DNA from: Phycisphaerae bacterium
GTDB lineage: Bacteria > Planctomycetota > Phycisphaerae > UBA1845 > PWPN01
Reading direction: 5' to 3'
Assembly (NCBI GenBank): GCA_012729395.1
Contig: JAAYDF010000334.1
Coordinates: 1,714 to 65,713 of the forward strand
DNA: 64,000 nt
Positions 7,460 to 56,620 of this stretch are shown piece after piece. Each line of letters begins with the position of its first letter. Within the stretch, counting starts at the first letter, position 1. A program made the translations under genes and the position numbers. The notes under the pieces are model-generated. The model made no database searches, had not been told where the DNA came from, and saw only the letters and a program-made list of their open reading frames with translations.

Positions 7460-7551
7460 GGGTAGCTCCTCTTCTGCAAGGGCTGCGCGGCGGTCTGGCA
7501 CTGCTGGATTCTACGCGAGGGCGTGCGGCGAAGCGAGGCGTGTGTGCTCAC

Positions 7552-7585
7552 GAGCCGCGGGCTTTGGGCCCGCGGCTCGTTGGCG
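7552..7585 (+). repeat. REP family 1 variant hairpin
   Basis: gagccgcgggc-tttgg-gcccgcggctc forms a perfect 11-bp stem with a 5-nt loop, followed by the gttggcg tail. It lies about 70 nt upstream of the hslV start. Confidence 0.7.
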
Positions 7586-32391: not shown

Positions 32392-32815
32392 CTCTCCGAT
32401 ACGGGGCCGAGCGCCGACCTGAAACCACCTCGCTCGGCCCCCACTGTATGTTCAGTATAACCGCCCGGAACGGCAAAATGCAACGCCCAGACGACCTGCG
32501 AGCCGCAGTTTACCGGACCTCCCCTCAGGTTTCAAGCGGCCCGGCCACCCAGGCCCAACCCGAGAGCCGTGACAGAGTCGCGGTCCGGGGCGGTGGTTTG
32601 GGAATCGTAGCGGCCGCCTCACCCGCTGGAGAACAGCGCCTTTTGGCGGCGAACAGCCCATGACGAAACCGGCGGGATATCGTTGCCGGGACCAGGGCAA
32701 CCTGTTACTGTCCGTGACCTATGCTTCGCACATCCGTCAAGAAGCCGACTCGGTCCCAAGGGAGCGGCACGCCGCAGGTCGCTTGCCTTCCACTGGCCAC
32801 GGCAGGGAGCCGGCC

Positions 32816-34231
32816 ATGCCGCCACTAGATGATTCACATACGCTTTCGCCTGCCGACCGCGATCGGCTCGTTGCCTTGGACCGGGCCCATGTGTGGCACC
32901 CGTTCACCCAGCATGCCCTGTGGAACGAGGTGGACCCGCTGATCATCGTCGCGGGGGACGGCGAGTACCTCATCGACGCCGATGGTCGGCGTTACCTTGA
33001 CGGCCATTCGAGCCTGTGGTGCAACGTCCACGGACACCGTCGGCCGGAGATCGACCGGGCAATCATCGAGCAGCTTGGCCGGATCGCCCACAGCACGCAG
33101 CTCGGGCTGGCCTCGCCGCCGGCCATCGAGCTGGCCCAGCGTCTGGTCGAGATCGCCCCGCCGGGCCTGACCCGGGTCTTCTTTTCCGACGACGGCTCCA
33201 CCAGCGTCGAGGTGGCCGCCAAGCTGGCCTACGCCTACTGGCACCACCGCGGCCAGCCGCAGCGCGACCGGTTCATCAACCTGAGCCTCGCCTACCACGG
33301 CGATACCATCGGGTCGGTCAGTCTCGGCGGCATCGATCTCTTCCACCGCCTCTATCGTCCGCTGCTGTTCCCGACGCTGCCGGCCCCGACGCCCTACTGC
33401 TACCGCTGCCCGCTGGGTTTGTCACCGGATTCCTGCGGGCTGGCCTGTGCCGACGAGGTCGGGCGGCTCCTCGAACAACATGCCGGCCGTGTTGCCGCCG
33501 TCGTGATTGAGCCGCTCGTGCAGTGTGCCGGCGGGATCATCACCGCCCCACCGGGCCACCTGGCCCGCATCCGCGAGGCGTGCACCCGGCACAACACGTT
33601 GCTGATCGCCGACGAGGTCGCCACGGGTTTCGGTCGCACCGGCCGCATGTTCGCCTGCGACCACGAGCGCGTCGCCCCCGACCTGTTGTGCCTCTCTAAG
33701 GGACTGACCGGGGGTTATCTGCCCCTCGCGGTCACGCTGGCAACCGAGGAAATCTACGCCGCCTTCCTCGGCCCGATCGACAGCGGCCGTACCTTCTACC
33801 ACGGTCACACCTTCACCGGTAATCCGCTCGGGTGCGTCGCCGCTCTGGCTTCGCTGGACATCTTCGCCGCCGACCGGACGCTCGAGCATCTACCCACTCT
33901 GATCGAGTCCCTCGCCGTCCACCTTGCCCGCCTCGCCCGCAACCCACACGTCGGCGACGTGCGGCAATGGGGTTTGATCGCCGGCGTCGAGATCGTCCGC
34001 GACAAGGCGACGCGCGAGGCGTTCCCCTACGCCCGGCAGGTCGGCGCCCGCGTCTGCCATCACGCCCGCCGCTACGGCGTGATTCTCCGTCCTCTGGCCG
34101 ACACCATCGTCATCATGCCCCCGCTGTGCATCACGCCCGCCAACCTCGACCACCTCTTGCTCACCGTCGAACGTTGCATCAACGAGGTACTGCCGGCCAT
34201 CGAGACCGGCACCGCGGATGGGCTGGAGTGA
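32816..34231 (+). CDS. bioA: Adenosylmethionine-8-amino-7-oxononanoate aminotransferase
   Basis: Class III PLP aminotransferase. Contains HVWHPFTQ, LIADEVATGFGRTG, catalytic-Lys region LCLSKGLTGGYLPL and HGHTFTGNPL. Confidence 0.88.
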   Translation: MPPLDDSHTLSPADRDRLVALDRAHVWHPFTQHALWNEVDPLIIVAGDGEYLIDADGRRYLDGHSSLWCNVHGHRRPEIDRAIIEQLGRIAHSTQLGLASPPAIELAQRLVEIAPPGLTRVFFSDDGSTSVEVAAKLAYAYWHHRGQPQRDRFINLSLAYHGDTIGSVSLGGIDLFHRLYRPLLFPTLPAPTPYCYRCPLGLSPDSCGLACADEVGRLLEQHAGRVAAVVIEPLVQCAGGIITAPPGHLARIREACTRHNTLLIADEVATGFGRTGRMFACDHERVAPDLLCLSKGLTGGYLPLAVTLATEEIYAAFLGPIDSGRTFYHGHTFTGNPLGCVAALASLDIFAADRTLEHLPTLIESLAVHLARLARNPHVGDVRQWGLIAGVEIVRDKATREAFPYARQVGARVCHHARRYGVILRPLADTIVIMPPLCITPANLDHLLLTVERCINEVLPAIETGTADGLE

Positions 34232-34345: not shown

Positions 34346-34378
34346 GCCGCGCGGGCTGAAACCCGCGGCTCGTTGGCG
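34346..34378 (+). repeat. REP family 1 singleton
   Basis: gccgcgcgggctgaaacccgcggctcgttggcg is the same hairpin and tail as the copies inside purH. It lies between bioA and the SDR gene. Confidence 0.7.
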
Positions 34379-34466: not shown

Positions 34467-35255
34467 GTGCACAGCATGGTCAGCAAGCAGCCCGTCGCTT
34501 TGGTCACCGGAGGCTCCCGCGGCATCGGCCGGGGAATCGCTTTGGCTCTGGGCCAGGAGGGCTACACCGTCCTGATCAACTACAACAGCAACGTCGGCTC
34601 GGCGGTACAGACCAAGCACATGATCGAGCAGATGGGCGGCCAGGCGGAGACCTGCCAGGCGGACATCGCGGCCGGGCCCGACCGCGAGCTGTTGCTGGAT
34701 TACTGTATGGAGAACCTCGGGCGGCTCGACCTGCTGGTCAACAACGCGGGCATCGCTCCGCCCAAACGCATGGACCTGCTGGAGACCGACGAGAAAAACT
34801 ACGACAAGGTCATGACCACCAACCTCAAGGGGCCGTTCTTCCTCGCCCAGCGGGCGGCCAACCTGATGATCCAGGAACTGCAGAACAAGATCATCCCCTC
34901 CGGGTGCATCATCAACGTCTCCTCGATCAGCGCATATGCGGTCAGCGTCAACCGCGGCGAATACTGCATGAGCAAAGCGGGCGTGTCGATGATGACCAGC
35001 CTGCTGGCCGTCCGGCTGGCGGAGCACGGCATCCCGGTGTACGAAGTGCGGCCCGGAGTGGTCGATACCGACATGACCGCCGCGGTCAAGGAGAAATACG
35101 ACAAGCTCATCCGCGAGGGCTTCTCGCCTATCCGCCGCTGGGGCAAGCCCGCCGACGTGGGCAAAGCCGTGGCCATGCTGGCCCGCGGCGACCTGCCGTT
35201 CTCGACCGGCGAGGTCATCAACGTCGACGGTGGCTTCCACATACGGTATTTCTGA
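34467..35255 (+). CDS. SDR family oxidoreductase (3-oxoacyl-ACP reductase-like)
   Basis: TGGSRGIG cofactor motif, NNAG, and catalytic SS...YCMSK (YxxxK). Confidence 0.9.
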   Translation: MHSMVSKQPVALVTGGSRGIGRGIALALGQEGYTVLINYNSNVGSAVQTKHMIEQMGGQAETCQADIAAGPDRELLLDYCMENLGRLDLLVNNAGIAPPKRMDLLETDEKNYDKVMTTNLKGPFFLAQRAANLMIQELQNKIIPSGCIINVSSISAYAVSVNRGEYCMSKAGVSMMTSLLAVRLAEHGIPVYEVRPGVVDTDMTAAVKEKYDKLIREGFSPIRRWGKPADVGKAVAMLARGDLPFSTGEVINVDGGFHIRYF

Positions 35256-37807: not shown

Positions 37808-37939
37808 CCGAACACCAGCACATCAACAATTGGCGCCCGCCTGGAGCGTTGCACGATTCACCGTAGCGGTCGCCCCCAGACCTCGGCGAGCTCGCTGGAC
37901 GCCTGGCTCCTGCGGCAAAATGGCGAATGCCCAAGGCCC

Positions 37940-38051
37940 AATGACCAATCAATGACCAAGCCCGAAGCCAGAACGCCAACCGCGGGCGGGGACGTTGGTC
38001 ATGGGTCATTCGGACTTCATGGCTCATTGGGGCTTCGCCATGGGTCATTTC
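37940..38051. repeat. Imperfect inverted repeat built from aatgaccaa / ttggtcatt units
   Basis: aatgaccaa at 37940-37948 and 37951-37959. Inverted units ttggtcatgggtcatt at 37995-38010, plus 38017-38030 and 38039-38051. It lies between two convergent genes. Confidence 0.6.
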
Positions 38052-38096
38052 GACCGCGGATCGCGAGTTGCGCCCTACACAATCTGGTGAAACGCT

Positions 38097-40625
38097 CTAG
38101 TGTTTGAAGTGTCGAGTACCGGTCAGGATCATGGCCACGCCGGCCTGGTCACAGGCGGCGATGGTCTCGGCATCACGCTTGCCACCACCGGGCTGGATCA
38201 TCGCGGTGATACCGGCGGCGATGAGCTTGGCGGGGCCATCCGGGACCGGGAAGAACGCATCCCCCGCCGCCACCGCCCCGGCCAGCTTGTCGCCGTGGCC
38301 ATTCTCGTGGGCCAGTTGGATGGCCACATCGCAGCTCTTCACCCGTGACATCTGCCCCGCCCCGTTGCCCAGCAACATGCCGTCGCGGCAAATGCTGATC
38401 GCGTTGCTCTTGGTGTGCTTACAGACCAGCCAGGCAAATCGCAAATCTGACATCTCAGATTCCGAAGGGGCCCGTTGGGTGACTACCTTCCACTCATCTT
38501 CATTGAGGCCAAGCAGATCGCGGGTCTGCACGAGCATACCCCCTGCGATCTTGCGGTAGTCAAGGTCGTTGGGGTCGGGCGGCGCGCTCATGTCGCCGAC
38601 GGCCAGCAGGCGGCAACTCGCCCCCCACTTGCGCTTCTCGGTCGGCGTGGTGATGAGATCGACCGCGTCGTCGTCGAAGCCCGGTGCGATCCAGACGTCC
38701 AGCTTGAAGAAGGACGCCCCGGCCGCCTTGCCCCAGGCCTGGAAGGTGTTCATCACCGTCTGGGCGAAGTCGCGGGTGACGGCGAAGTTGACGCACAGCA
38801 CGCCCCCTGCCGCCGCGATCGGATCGCCCAGATACGCCCGCCGGTACGTGTCGATCGGGTCATCCCCCACCGCACACCCACACGCGTTGGTATGCTTGAT
38901 AAACGCGACAGCGCAGCCGCTCGTCAACGAAGCTCCGCCCAAAGAGCCGCGGGCTTCAGCCCGCGCGGTCATCGGAAGTCGTGAGACGCCCCGCCCTCCC
39001 TCGACGCCAGAGATCACCGCCCCCCGGAATGAGCCCCCGCAAAGCATCCCCTGCTGTCCCAGAACGTAATCCACGGCGGCGCAGACATCCTCCTGCGCCT
39101 TGATGTGCCGGGTAGAGCCCGATTTCGTCCACCAGCGCGAACCGGCAGGCAAGGCAAAGCGTTTGCCCAGTTCCCGCGAGGTACTGCCTTTGAACAACTG
39201 CAGGAGCTCGTCGCCTTGCCGCTCCGTCTGGCAGAGGAGGTGCACGTGATTGCTCATCACACTCAGTGCCAGCAGGCCGATGCCGTGCCGATGAGCCACG
39301 TCTATCAGCGCTTCAAACGCGCAGAGAGCCTGCTCGCTAGACAACAGAACAGGCTCTCCGCCCATCCGCTCACGCGCCGATTCGGATACATCCCTCTCTG
39401 CCGCCGAGTACGGCGTACCGGGGACATTGTGCACAATGTGTGCGCCTTGGTCCGTGGGTGTTCGGCTTACAAACCCTCGCGGATCGCCGGGCAGCCATTG
39501 GCCATAGGTCGTCCAGGTGAGTAGCCATTTTCGAATCGACGAATCAGGGGGAGAGAACGCGTCCGCAGGAAGCCCCACCGCGCGGGCTGAAGCCCGCGGC
39601 TCGTTGCTTGGCGAATCCGCGTTTGCACTGCTCCCAGGCACCGCGCGGGCTGAAGCCCGCGGCTCTTTGGCCGCCCGCGTCAGCTCCTTCACCAGGGACA
39701 ATGCCGCGTCGCCATCGACGTAGTTGTTGAACGAGAGAGGGGACTCGGAAACCTGCTCCGACCACACCAACGTCGCTTCTTGCTCCGAATGCACCTGCGT
39801 CGCTTCTCGCCCTAGCCGTGCGTGCATCGCTCCCTGATCTGGTGCCGAGGGTGTGGCCCCCATCCCAAACACACTGCGGAAACTCCACAATGCCGCATCC
39901 TGGGCGGGGTTCTCCCCGTAACGGAGCAGGTGATCACGACTCAAAGCGACGATCGCATGCGCAGGTGGCGGCACAGGCGGGCCACTGTCACCTCTCCGCT
40001 CGGCAAGGCGCTGGAGCATGTGGCCGAAGAAGCTGCTGAAATGCTGGTATACGGCAAGATCGTAGCCGCTGGTGGTCTCGAATACGTTGATCGCACAAGC
40101 CAGCCTGAACCCGTAACCGCAGCAGCCGGTACAAGCCCGCAGAGCATCCAGGACATCCTTGTACTGCTGTCGCAAACAAGCCACGAGAACGCCGCTATGA
40201 TTCTTCGCCGCGGCGCGGAGCATGCAAGGGCCGCCAATGTCGATCATCTCGATGGCGTCCTCGAACTTGCAGTTCGGGTCCGCGACGGTCTTCTCGAACG
40301 GGTAGAGGTTGACCACCACCATGTCGATCGGCTGGATGCCGTGCTCGGCCAGTTGCCGCATGTGGTCCGGGTTGTCGCGGTCGGCGAGGATCGCGGCGTG
40401 GATCTTGGGGTGCAGGGTCTTCACCCGGCCGTCAAGCATCTCGGGAAACCCGGTGACCTGCTCAACCATGGTCACGGGAATGCCGGCCTCCTTCAGGTGC
40501 TTGGCCGTACCGCCGGTGGAGATGATCTCGATGCCGAACTCGTCCACCAAGGCACGGGCAAAGTCGGCGATACCGGTCTTGTCATACACCGCAATCAGGG
40601 CGCGTTGAATCTTGAGTGTGTCCAT
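38097..40625 (-). CDS. purH: Bifunctional AICAR transformylase / IMP cyclohydrolase PurH, interrupted in frame by a RAYT-REP element
   Basis: The N-terminal MGS-like domain (ALIAVYDKTGI, STGGTAK, DGRVKTLHPKIH, VVVNLYPF, DIGGP) and the AICARFT domain (LRYGENP, LSFNNYVDGDAA, FIKHTNACG, KHTKSNAI, GAGQMSRV, DAFFPF, IQPGGS-like QPGGGKRD, RHFKH) form one 842-codon ORF. About 250 codons in the middle are foreign. Confidence 0.85.
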   Translation of the reverse strand: MDTLKIQRALIAVYDKTGIADFARALVDEFGIEIISTGGTAKHLKEAGIPVTMVEQVTGFPEMLDGRVKTLHPKIHAAILADRDNPDHMRQLAEHGIQPIDMVVVNLYPFEKTVADPNCKFEDAIEMIDIGGPCMLRAAAKNHSGVLVACLRQQYKDVLDALRACTGCCGYGFRLACAINVFETTSGYDLAVYQHFSSFFGHMLQRLAERRGDSGPPVPPPAHAIVALSRDHLLRYGENPAQDAALWSFRSVFGMGATPSAPDQGAMHARLGREATQVHSEQEATLVWSEQVSESPLSFNNYVDGDAALSLVKELTRAAKEPRASARAVPGSSANADSPSNEPRASARAVGLPADAFSPPDSSIRKWLLTWTTYGQWLPGDPRGFVSRTPTDQGAHIVHNVPGTPYSAAERDVSESARERMGGEPVLLSSEQALCAFEALIDVAHRHGIGLLALSVMSNHVHLLCQTERQGDELLQLFKGSTSRELGKRFALPAGSRWWTKSGSTRHIKAQEDVCAAVDYVLGQQGMLCGGSFRGAVISGVEGGRGVSRLPMTARAEARGSLGGASLTSGCAVAFIKHTNACGCAVGDDPIDTYRRAYLGDPIAAAGGVLCVNFAVTRDFAQTVMNTFQAWGKAAGASFFKLDVWIAPGFDDDAVDLITTPTEKRKWGASCRLLAVGDMSAPPDPNDLDYRKIAGGMLVQTRDLLGLNEDEWKVVTQRAPSESEMSDLRFAWLVCKHTKSNAISICRDGMLLGNGAGQMSRVKSCDVAIQLAHENGHGDKLAGAVAAGDAFFPVPDGPAKLIAAGITAMIQPGGGKRDAETIAACDQAGVAMILTGTRHFKH
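38944..38969 (-). repeat. REP family 1 hairpin (inverted relative to the other two in purH)
   Basis: gagccgcgggcttcagcccgcgcggt on the + strand. Translated within purH as TARAEARGS. Confidence 0.8.
39577..39613 (+). repeat. REP family 1 hairpin with gttgcttggcg tail
   Basis: accgcgcgggctgaagcccgcggctc has a 7-bp core stem (cgcgggc / gcccgcg) with loop tgaa. Translated within purH as EPRASARAV. Confidence 0.8.
39640..39670 (+). repeat. REP family 1 hairpin
   Basis: Its 26-nt core is identical to the copy at 39577-39602, 63 nt away and in direct orientation. Also translated as EPRASARAV. Confidence 0.8.
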
Positions 40626-40787
40626 GGGGGCTCATCATAGCGAGTGCGCCTGAAGCGACAAAGAGACAATTCGCAGACCAAGCGACAAAGGGATGATTGA
40701 CGAAGGAATCGCGAGCCTGCTCGCCTCTTGGCGAGACAGCCATCGAGCAGCATTCGTGAGGTCGCCCCCCCACTCCGCACTCGCGCT

Positions 40788-42170
40788 TCACTGCTCGATA
40801 CGACGGGTCGATCGCAGAGGATCGGCCAACAGCATCTCGTCGTAGCTAGGCGGCGGACCTTGCTCAGTAGCGGGGGAAGCGGCGGTCTCGGCTTCGGCTT
40901 CCTCCTGCGTTGCAGGCTGAGCTTGCTCGGCGGGTTGGCCGACGGACGGGGCCGCGACCGGCTTGAGCCGAAAGTCCGCGAGGGTCAGAGCCGGGGCCCC
41001 AATGGGCCGCAGGCAGCGGATCTCGCCCCGGGCGTTAGTCAGCAGAATGGCGTCGTTCCAGGGGTTGCTCAGGGCATCAGCCAAGGGGCAGATTTCCAGC
41101 AACTCGGCCAGCTCACCGCGGGCGGGATCCCACAGGGCAATCCGCCCACCGGTCTGGAGCACCGCGACACGGCTGGGTAGTTCTGCCAGGAAAGCCCGGC
41201 CGGCCGGGTCACGCCAATTGGGCCGCGTCCGCTCGAGCCCAATGCGGTGCAGCCCCTCATTCCGCGTCGCTTGGTAAACGGCATCCTTGGTCACGATGGG
41301 GCCGCCCTCGGGGCGATCCGCCAGCCGATACTGCCAGACCACGTCGCCGGTCACCCGCTCAACAGCGTGCAGAATGCGATCCATGGTGGCAACGTAGACG
41401 TTCCGCCCATCGACGGCCAACCAGCCAAGCGGCCTGGCCCCCAGTTGCCGCGAGAACCGGTTCATGCGACCGGAGCTCATGGCGGTCATACTGCCGCTGT
41501 CGTCGACGACCACCAGGGTGTCATCCCCTAAGACGTAGACCGGGGCCAGACTGAGCGTTCCGTTGGCCGACGCGGTCCATTCCACCAGCCCGTCGGTGAT
41601 GTTGAGGCACGTCATGCGGTACTGCGGGCTGACCTGGAAGAGCCATTCCTCGGCGGCGGCGACGGAGGCGTTATTCGTGGCGGGCAGGCGGCCACGCCGC
41701 AACTCGGCCCCACTCTGCGGATCAAGGAAAAGGACGTCACGGACGCGACTGAAGGCGACCGCCTGCATGCTGTGACCGATGGCCACATCGTGGGCGCCGG
41801 CCTCGTCGGCGGTCAGCGTCAGGTTGGCTGAAACCGGCGGCCAGATGACCTCGAACTCCTCGGCCACCTTGCGGGCCCAGGCATATTCGCCGGTATCCGC
41901 CCGGACGGCATACACCACCCCCGTCGAGGCGATGGCGTAGATGTACCCGTCCACCAAGTGGTAGGAGCGAATGGACGCCGACAGCCTGATCGGGAGCGAG
42001 GTTTGCCAGGCCGTGCGCACGCGGGCCAGCCCCATTTGCGGCCCGGCCCAAGGCCCCAAAGGGGCGGCGGCGTGAGCGACAGCGGCGGTCAGGCCGGCGA
42101 GCAACAGGGTCCAACGGGCCGCCCACGCTCGGCGAGCAGCGGGACAACACCCGGGCAGGGATGGGTTCAT
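40788..42170 (-). CDS. PQQ-like beta-propeller repeat protein (BamB-like)
   Basis: Signal peptide (RWTLLLAGLTAAVAHAAAP). Repeated blades with D/G-x-hydrophobic-Y-ali and W motifs (VVYAVRADTGEYAW, DGLVEWT, GDVVWQY). Acidic/Pro-rich tail. Confidence 0.75.
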   Translation of the reverse strand: MNPSLPGCCPAARRAWAARWTLLLAGLTAAVAHAAAPLGPWAGPQMGLARVRTAWQTSLPIRLSASIRSYHLVDGYIYAIASTGVVYAVRADTGEYAWARKVAEEFEVIWPPVSANLTLTADEAGAHDVAIGHSMQAVAFSRVRDVLFLDPQSGAELRRGRLPATNNASVAAAEEWLFQVSPQYRMTCLNITDGLVEWTASANGTLSLAPVYVLGDDTLVVVDDSGSMTAMSSGRMNRFSRQLGARPLGWLAVDGRNVYVATMDRILHAVERVTGDVVWQYRLADRPEGGPIVTKDAVYQATRNEGLHRIGLERTRPNWRDPAGRAFLAELPSRVAVLQTGGRIALWDPARGELAELLEICPLADALSNPWNDAILLTNARGEIRCLRPIGAPALTLADFRLKPVAAPSVGQPAEQAQPATQEEAEAETAASPATEQGPPPSYDEMLLADPLRSTRRIEQ

Positions 42171-42484
42171 GCTGGGCACCTCACAAGATATTTCCGGAAC
42201 CATTCAATCCGGCCGAGAGCCCCCGGTCAAGAGCTTGGGCGGAAAAAGGGTTCGGGGGCTTGCAAAGGCGGACCGGGCCAGTTAGTCTTTGCCCGAGGCG
42301 CATGGTAGAGCGGGAGTTGTGTTTGCACCGCCACCGACCCGCCGGGTCGCTGCCTCGGCCCGATTGTTGAGTGCCAGCCCGCAGGCTGGGGTAAGCCGGT
42401 TCCAGCCCGGCAGGGTCCTCCCTCCTCGAGGCCTCCGAGGTTTGGGCTTGGTGGAACCTTGGATATGCAAGCAGGAGCCTGTAG

Positions 42485-56324: not shown

Positions 56325-56620
56325 GCTTGGCCCCGTTCGACCATCCCTTTGTGTCGAGAGAGCATGATACCCTCCACGGCCGCAGGTTGCATCGCTCGGC
56401 AGCGGCTTGCGGGGGCGGGTGGCGAGGGCGGTACTCCGATCCCATGCGTGCACCGTCCGGGTGAACCCGCGGACTGGCGTCCGCGGCTCGTGTGGGCAGA
56501 TCCGCGAATGCGCCGGTGGGGATCTCTGGGATATCGCGAAACGGCGAGCACTCCGGTAGAATGCCACCTCTTGATATTTCGCGAATTGCCGCTGAGCCGG
56601 CCGGAAGGTTGTGAAGCAGA

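Follow-up and report, generated by a model that had tools for sequence, protein, structure and literature searches.

A Y1 transposase domain bordered by inverted hairpins lies in frame within PurH of Phycisphaerae

The purine gene purH in a 64,000-nt stretch of a Phycisphaerae bacterium genome (contig JAAYDF010000334.1 of assembly GCA_012729395.1, positions 1,714 to 65,713; hereafter, the window) contains a complete HUH/Y1 transposase domain together with its bordering DNA hairpins, all within the reading frame of the host gene. The insert is probably a unit like a REPtron (a transposase gene between repetitive extragenic palindromic, REP, elements) which has long been resident in a loop of PurH and is made only as an internal domain of the host protein. 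Transposases are expected to wreck the genes they enter, or to remove themselves as inteins and IStrons do. Judging from sequence comparisons, essential enzymes across a bacterial class seem to tolerate a complete transposase, DNA ends included, and to be translated together with it.

The purH open reading frame (ORF) occupies positions 38097-40625 on the minus strand, with 842 codons plus a stop and no interruption. The product was identified as PurH by NCBIfam NF002049 (553 bits against a cutoff of 402), and Pfam placed MGS at residues 18-133 and AICARFT at residues 572-770. Residues 320-569 (nt 38919-39668) are an extra segment of 250 codons. In gene order it holds a pair of hairpins in direct orientation, then a 172-aa HUH/Y1 domain, then a single hairpin in inverted orientation. 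Alignment to the Mycobacterium tuberculosis PurH (3ZZM) and to relatives with an empty site showed that the position of the insert is otherwise a short loop of few residues, located between a helix and the strand CVAIIKHANPCG, which bears a conserved Lys-His motif. The 26-nt hairpin GAGCCGCGGGCTTCAGCCCGCGCGGT has three exact copies in the window, compared with none by chance (100 shuffles), and the ends of the insert form a 34-nt inverted repeat (38936-38969 and 39640-39673) that is 97% complementary. No methionine is present in residues 320-366, where the sole alternative starts are two GTG codons within the hairpins, and no sigma-70-like promoter was found within the insert, the single match being located upstream of purH (40661-40634). 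A preliminary description of the window had claimed the uninterrupted 842-codon gene with this insert, only a few residues at the junction in canonical PurH, two direct and one inverted identical hairpins, a Y1 domain with an HUH motif and a candidate catalytic tyrosine (located here at residues 459-465 and at Tyr520), and the lack of an ATG before the core, all of which were confirmed by the ORF, the profile searches, the alignments and the exact coordinates of the hairpins.

The window PurH was aligned with the best 120 homologues of a whole-protein search (121 proteins in total). A Y1 insert of 200-315 aa was found in exactly the same loop in 51 of them, all from Phycisphaerae/Planctomycetota and each encoded by one ORF. 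The insert-bearing proteins have 740-870 aa in the order MGS, Y1_Tnp, AICARFT, whereas ordinary PurH has 550-580 aa, and their sources are metagenome-assembled genomes (MAGs) and one complete genome, that of Phycisphaerae bacterium RAS2 (CP036352.1, purH in the region 1886182-1908650). About 44% of the close homologues are without any insert, and another 14% have only a short footprint or a longer loop. The empty sites beside filled ones are those that the preliminary description had proposed to look for; its idea that only a rare in-frame survivor was at hand was not upheld, as the insert is old and recurrent in Phycisphaerae. It had also considered that relatives might carry the segment as a REP-free domain: the segment is indeed present in relatives, but its hairpins are conserved as DNA (see below).

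Three Y1 families occupy the PurH loop, each between its own repeat-encoded peptides. Type A, the family of the window (29 proteins), has the signature WLLTWTTYG...HVHLLCQ...Y and the flanks EPRASARAV and TARAEARGS. Type B (RRNLPHIQ..YFVTFR..MPDHVHLL) is flanked by LWHRRPAG and HRRDAGAT plus variants, and type C (RRKLPHWQ..YWVTF) by GSAKLCFA and NKAELCSP. With the model NF047646 for REP-associated tyrosine transposases (RAYTs; cutoff 80), type C scored 88.4 bits and type B 73.9. A PQQ_2/BamB-like gene is syntenic upstream of purH at type-A, type-B, empty and footprint loci as well as in the window, indicating that these are orthologous native purH loci. The purH frame is unbroken across both junctions in all relatives despite variable linker length, and none of the motifs KH.N.CG, KHTKSNA and RHFKH varies among 29 insert-bearing homologues, so far as sequence can tell pointing to a PurH that stays functional with the insert. 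Database annotation reflects both parts, as JGI uses the name "PurH/REP element-mobilizing transposase RayT" and NCBI calls some of the proteins "transposase".

A recent accidental insertion, a pseudogene or an assembly artefact confined to the window's genome is hardly credible given this distribution. Only the prior expectation for a transposase within a gene speaks for it. Dozens of divergent homologues in NCBI, JGI, ENA and Logan assemblies share this architecture, as does the complete RAS2 genome, and dN/dS of the host part is about 0.1. The identity among core copies is only about 56%, which indicates an old insertion. A single recent event of any of these kinds is thus refuted by the recurrence, the one-frame junctions and the host dN/dS.

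Selection acts on the hairpins as structured nucleic acid. In DNA retrieved for the relatives, the same hairpin borders the domain even where PurH is merely 65-75% identical. It consists of a perfect 7-bp stem with a TTCA loop, preceded by GAGC without variation on the 5' side and followed by CG(G) on the 3' side, the tag being neither GTAG nor CGTC, and it folds as single-stranded DNA at about -10 kcal/mol. Stem variants are compensated, for example CCCGGAC/GTCCGGG (locus L005; L numbers denote loci of relatives) and CGCGGCC/GGCCGCG (L006), with CGCAGGC, CGCGAAC and CACGGCC elsewhere, and the left and right ends of one gene always show the identical variant. For a measure of covariation, hairpins were chosen by their invariant flanks and loop only (GAGC-N7-TTCA-N7-CG), which avoids circularity. 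Among the 42 distinct sequences obtained, 88.8% of cells were paired, six of the seven pairs were altered on both sides, and the stem covariation score was 0.606, compared with 0.173 in shuffles (0/500) and at most 0.128 in slid registers. At third positions of codons for invariant residues, the hairpins are 87-89% identical, compared with 28-83% in host and core motifs of equal conservation. Five of the six frames of the hairpin are open, encoding peptides rich in Ala, Arg, Gly, Ser, Pro and Glu. The left hairpin of RAS2 sits in a shifted codon phase and yields QRAAGFSPRG, with AARAEARGS encoded by the right one. Conservation merely as a peptide was ruled out by the use of another frame in RAS2, P0015 and P0016, by the covarying stems and by the conserved third positions.

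The domain between the hairpins was recognized by Pfam Y1_Tnp (PF01797) at 25.6 and 27.4 bits, above the gathering cutoff of 23. It failed the NCBI RAYT equivalog NF047646 (33.7 and 36.4 bits, cutoff 80) and the IS200 model NF033573 (25.6 and 27.2 bits, cutoff 55). The preliminary description had named the insert a RAYT flanked by its cognate REPs; the inverted-hairpin layout agrees with this, but the protein misses the RAYT cutoff by a wide range (34-36 versus 80 bits). The type-A core has 172 aa and is essentially free of indels among 29 PurH homologues, and its residues H104, H106 and Y164 are invariant in 20 sequences, stand-alone relatives included. The core profile matched structures of IS200/IS605 TnpA with E values from 1e-9 to 3e-6 (2F4F at 1e-9, also 2EC2, 2XM3 and 2A6M). 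Its HUH motif aligned to HIHLF of 2F4F, and its tyrosine to those of 2F4F and 2EC2.

An AlphaFold model of the core (predicted local distance difference test, pLDDT, 79; predicted template modelling score, pTM, 0.75) has the tyrosine in a predicted helix (158-166). In a Foldseek search of the PDB with this model, the best 30 matches were all Y1 transposases, with E down to 9e-7, and the match to 4ER8, the E. coli RAYT with a bound REP hairpin, had E = 1.4e-3. The modelled fold of type A is that of IS200/IS608/RAYT proteins. The organisation of the unit is RAYT-like, and by sequence and fold the domain is at least as near to IS200/IS605 TnpA. Where computable, dN/dS was 0.08-0.27 for the type-A core and 0.09-0.18 for the PurH parts, values that are only partly informative as core dS is at or near saturation. 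Purifying selection acts on the Y1 domain at the protein level.

Between strand 1 and helix 1 of the core, residues 20-53 (window residues ~376-409) are strongly conserved as WLPGDxRGFVSR...H...N.PGTPY and were modelled with low confidence. This segment of about 30 aa is a signature of the type-A family.

In the full-length AlphaFold model, the PurH domains and the Y1 core form blocks with pLDDT of 80-90, and residues 322-354 and 537-568 have pLDDT below 50. These low-confidence linkers are the hairpin-encoded stretches, which fits a looped-out domain on flexible tethers. The model thus agrees with the loop-out suggested in the preliminary description, whose proposal of in-frame read-through is also supported, as relatives keep one frame over both junctions and no internal start is conserved. 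The product would be translated as a fusion of about 90 kDa.

The insert could instead be removed before the mature enzyme forms, by DNA excision in a subpopulation, by mRNA splicing, or by intein-like or proteolytic removal. We consider this quite unlikely. The 34-nt, 97% complementary ends could bring the junctions together in RNA or single-stranded DNA, the excision of IS200/IS605-type elements is seamless (Corneloup 2021, PMC8266576), and the empty sites and footprints show that loss occurs. However, both junctions are in frame without exception, a feature not needed if the insert were removed before translation, almost the whole 750 nt codes for the domain, and the insert is present in assemblies of many independent samples and in one complete genome. 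A group I or II intron or an IStron was ruled out, with no Rfam intron or ribozyme match and no Rfam family of any kind at E <=1 over 37900-40900. An intein, which would begin with Cys, Ser or Thr and end in His-Asn ahead of another Cys, Ser or Thr, was also ruled out: Pfam found no Hint/intein domain, the window's insert starts with Lys-Glu (inserts having Lys or Glu as their first residue), and relatives differ in the residue that follows the insert (C, H, Y, S).

The distribution of the type-A domain was further profiled by a DNA-level search of one genome per species. The search was independent of gene calls, which removed the bias toward called full-length proteins, and 80 of 412 type-A relatives were kept. 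In the purH-linked matches, the N-terminal part, the insert and the C-terminal part share one frame in 10 of 10 cases. The family occurs in at least five host genes among the 80 kept matches. It lies in frame in valyl-tRNA synthetase (ValRS) in at least five cases (L014, L016, L024, L027, L031), at a single site between ...SDQWFV and ...DWCISRQLWWGH, in leucyl-tRNA synthetase (LeuRS; L023), and in MmeI-type restriction-modification enzymes (L029, L030, L032, L039, L043, L082). Putative fusions with a helicase (L047), MutS (L060) and an aminotransferase are terminal and were deduced from stop-to-stop frames. Other relatives are stand-alone genes of ~180-230 aa in Gemmataceae, Pirellulales, Kuenenia and further groups. 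Cognate inverted hairpins border the domain in every one of these settings, and the stand-alone loci L033 and L034 bear exactly the hairpin of the window. Two type-A copies, L023 and L031, are within one MAG. In a library of representatives at 50% identity, 1,491 type-A family clusters were detected at E <=1e-10, mostly stand-alone and a minority embedded.

The cores clustered by host gene in a neighbour-joining tree, with PurH, ValRS and MmeI clades. Within type-A PurH, the distances of the core and of the host were correlated (Mantel r = 0.60, 0/5000 permutations). Together, these two patterns indicate that the residence in purH is old and largely vertical. Recent transposition within a genome was unsupported, since the cores group by host gene and the copies of one MAG are not sisters. 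The states A, B, C, footprint and empty are scattered all over the PurH tree, with unlike states in some pairs of sisters.

Traces of loss were found at several loci. In 17 PurH proteins without a Y1 domain, the loop is longer by 7-46 residues, many with repeat-like peptides. L089 has one hybrid hairpin, GAGC-TGCGGGC-TTCA-GCCCGCG-GCTC, with the left flank of the left copy and the right flank of the right copy, the product that a deletion from one terminal hairpin to the other would leave. L090 retains a solo right-type hairpin and L091 two half remnants. At the right junction of the type-B locus L008 (5629-5660 region) there is half of a type-A hairpin, CTGAAGCCCGCGGCTCTTTG, encoding the peptide SEARGSL. 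This suggests that type B entered a site formerly held by type A and that successive Y1 families occupied one loop, perhaps with hairpin remnants as landing sites for the replacement. The simplest history would be an ancient entry followed by long co-inheritance, repeated in-frame loss and occasional replacement.

The hairpin appears to be a dispersed palindromic repeat that is often translated. At least 120 stretches matched the exact 25-mer in a metagenome scan, and among the matches listed, 47 of the 49 with enough flank had no Y1 domain nearby. Many solo hairpins are translated, among them those in a class I tRNA synthetase, where two lie head to head, in a PAS histidine kinase and in the linker of an AroD-AroE-AroK fusion, and further in TPR, RHS and LPG-synthase-like proteins; the loci are L168, L130, L122, L179, L155, L159 and L208. 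The window itself has three solo or related copies (Table 1). The symmetric GAGC...GCTC form of the one at 7549 resembles the deletion footprint of L089, and those at 7549 and 56461 sit amid many overlapping open frames (64% GC sequence). Across 300 kb of relatives' loci, each of the 76 family hairpins is no more than 1.8 kb away from a Y1 domain, and extra hairpins clustered within 1-2 kb of the domain are located in the host leader, the trailer or elsewhere in the same host ORF. This clustering hints at action in cis or at short range. The view that the hairpins are element ends only, with no dispersed repeat, to which this clustering had pointed, was overturned by the metagenome scan and the solo copies of the window.

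The reading we favour is that a Y1 unit bracketed by inverted cognate hairpins made its way into a surface loop of PurH in the distant past and was then passed on mainly vertically with purH. Without its own promoter or start, the domain would be made solely upon translation of purH, and would fold independently, looped out of PurH between flexible hairpin-encoded linkers. Y1 transposases cleave and join single-stranded DNA in a metal-dependent reaction with a 5'-phosphotyrosine intermediate. By analogy with RAYTs and IS200/IS605 TnpA, in which hairpin-specific cleavage and joining are known (Corneloup 2021, PMC8266576), the domain probably still binds, cuts and rejoins its own hairpin on single-stranded DNA. 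Such processing would keep the left and right copies matched and would seed the solo hairpins of the genome. An in-frame seat in an essential gene may secure expression and shield the element, as only precise or in-frame deletions would be tolerated, and such a logic of selfish persistence would place it in the niche of inteins, without splicing. On balance, though only just, we also hold that Planctomycetota of the class Phycisphaerae have hairpin-bounded HUH/Y1 units with a so far undescribed way of life: such units would sit in frame in permissive loops beside conserved motifs of essential or core enzymes (PurH, ValRS, LeuRS, MmeI-type enzymes), without a gene of their own and expressed solely as domains inside the host protein, would be long-lived, would leave translated hairpin footprints upon loss and would be replaced at the same loop by other Y1 families, as a non-splicing counterpart of inteins.

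Alternatively, the Y1 domain and its hairpins may no longer be mobile and may have been recruited for a host function, such as binding hairpins in host mRNA or DNA to tune purH or valS expression, or a nucleic-acid-linked role of the enzyme. The long and largely vertical residence, the clustering by host gene with correlated host and core distances, the purifying selection on the domain, and the proximity of 76 of 76 hairpins in the relatives' 300 kb, some in leader or trailer, would all be in line with such an exaptation. We nevertheless regard it as unlikely: the hosts are functionally unrelated (PurH, ValRS, LeuRS, MmeI enzymes, helicase, MutS), the close PurH proteins include the insert-free ~44% and the 14% with only a footprint or longer loop, three unrelated Y1 families interchange at one loop, the HUH motif and Tyr are kept though pure binding would not need them, and solo hairpins appear to be dispersed genome-wide.

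Several observations weigh against a persistent mobile unit in PurH as favoured here. The trees are neighbour-joining trees on identity distances. The cores cluster by host gene and near-identical copies were not seen, and the domain may be fully domesticated. In all close pairs (the window, L002, L003, L004, L009 and others), the proportion of synonymous differences (pS) of the core (0.65-0.78) exceeds that of the PurH part (0.43-0.62), which a purely vertical history does not account for; stronger codon bias in PurH proper, or exchange or re-insertion of the element, are possible reasons. The confidence of the full-length model is also moderate (mean pLDDT 70, pTM 0.44).

The unit was compared with known systems. 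REPs are palindromes of 20-50 nt that occur throughout a genome in many copies, for the most part intergenic. REPtrons were reportedly described by Nunvar in 2010 and Ton-Hoang in 2012 as RAYT/TnpAREP genes between a REP and an inverted REP. This arrangement, with RAYT/TnpAREP flanked by REP and inverted REP, is also described in Corneloup 2021 (PMC8266576). The window's unit resembles REPtrons in having an HUH/Y1 protein directly between inverted copies of a short, perfect palindrome with a conserved tetranucleotide ahead of it, in the co-evolution of protein and hairpin, and in the dispersed solo hairpins. It differs in that the protein is an internal domain of PurH (elsewhere of ValRS, LeuRS or MmeI enzymes) with no gene of its own, in the tag (GAGC instead of the GTAG usual in REPs), and in that the unit moved between host genes, with two copies in one MAG, whereas RAYTs are single-copy, stand-alone genes without signs of mobility.

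With IS200/IS605 elements (IS608, ISDra2, IS200) the unit shares hairpin ends processed as single-stranded DNA, and here the whole hairpin-Y1-hairpin unit was apparently relocated; this group also gave the best matches in sequence and fold (2F4F at 1e-9 and 2XMA at 9e-7). In contrast to those elements, which have distinct left and right subterminal hairpins on one strand and an autonomous transposase gene, the insert's ends are identical inverted hairpins, its element has no promoter or start, and no identical multi-copy elements were seen. Classical IS200/IS608 TnpA proteins are also without the ~30-aa WLPGDxRGFVSR... segment after strand 1. IStrons are likewise IS200/IS605-type elements tolerated inside genes, but a ribozyme removes them from mRNA, whereas the window insert is without a ribozyme and the frame is conserved through the element. 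Inteins with homing endonucleases are similar as selfish DNA-processing enzymes in frame beside catalytic motifs of essential genes, expressed via the host gene only, recurrent at the same site and patchy among relatives. Unlike them, the insert has no Hint domain and no splicing residues and appears to stay in the mature protein.

Palindromic repeats in frame within coding genes were reportedly described in Rickettsia by Ogata in 2000 (Rickettsia palindromic elements, RPEs). Intragenic GTAG/CGTC REPs have also been found within coding genes (Di Nocera 2013, PMC3733652). In both cases the repeats are translated in apparently functional proteins, as here, but without a transposase, whereas here a whole transposase domain is translated alongside the repeats. 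In the literature reached as full text, with many subscription papers outside reach, we found intragenic REPs and RAYT biology and no account of a RAYT or Y1 domain that lies in frame within purH or a tRNA synthetase.

If confirmed, in-frame residence would be a new route for mobile elements to secure expression and persistence, and would illustrate how ancient enzymes gain new domains in their interior. The host proteins would provide a natural collection of loops in PurH and tRNA synthetases that permit insertion, and the RAYT-like enzyme with its hairpin a tractable pair for the question of how REPs spread. For annotation, the consequence is that pipelines label some of these essential genes "transposase".

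Table 1 Features of the purH locus and hairpins of the family. Positions refer to the window unless a locus is given.
Feature	Position	Strand	Details
PurH N-terminal part	39669-40625	-	aa 1-319: MGS/IMP cyclohydrolase and start of AICAR transformylase domain, helix end ...LVKELTRAA
Left linker	39558-39668	-	aa 320-356, pLDDT <50, mostly hairpin-encoded (KEPRASARAV, NEPRASARAV)
Left hairpin, copy 1	39640-39665	-	GAGC-CGCGGGC-TTCA-GCCCGCG-CGGT, 7-bp stem, -9.7 kcal/mol as single-stranded DNA
Left hairpin, copy 2	39577-39602	-	identical to copy 1, direct, 63 nt away
Type-A HUH/Y1 core	39042-39557	-	aa 357-528, 172 aa, strand WLLTWTTYG
HUH motif NHVHLLC	39231-39251	-	aa 459-465
Catalytic Tyr520 (predicted)	39066-39068	-	core Y164
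Right linker	38919-39041	-	aa 529-569, pLDDT <50 from aa 537, holds right hairpin (TARAEARGS)
Right hairpin	38944-38969	+	exact inverted copy of the left hairpins
PurH C-terminal part	38100-38918	-	aa 570-842, first strand CAVAFIKHTNACG with conserved Lys-His motif
PQQ_2/BamB-like propeller gene	40791-42203	-	upstream of purH; synteny marks the native purH locus
Solo family hairpin	34346-34371	-	2 mismatches, one G-T wobble; in the intergenic gap that separates ORFs 32660-34231 and 34467-35255
Solo family-related hairpin	7549-7583	+	symmetric GAGC-CGCGGGC-TTTGG-GCCCGCG-GCTCGTTGG
Degenerate family-related hairpin	56461-56494	+	CCGCGGAC-TGGC-GTCCGCGG-CTCGTGTGG
Extra family hairpins near Y1 (relatives' loci)	L011 3757-3863; L017 4023; L020 3517; L004 12349; L027 3888, 6922; L031 6213, 6916		

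Further features were observed in and around the window purH. Its leader (40653-40698) has two 19-nt direct repeats, AAGCGACAAAGAGACAATT and AAGCGACAAAGGGATGATT, that are 27 nt apart and overlap the sigma-70-like match; they might be a regulator binding site, and no riboswitch was found at these repeats. Within the PurH part, residues ~250-297 form a second lineage-specific segment with low model confidence and no relation to the Y1 insert. Within this segment, a tandem duplication of 27 nt that keeps the frame (39754-39807, residues 273-291) encodes REATQVHSEQ and EATLVWSEQ. Directly 3' of the purH stop, positions 38000-38054 hold three tandem copies of a ~16-nt unit (CATGGGTCATTCGGAC).

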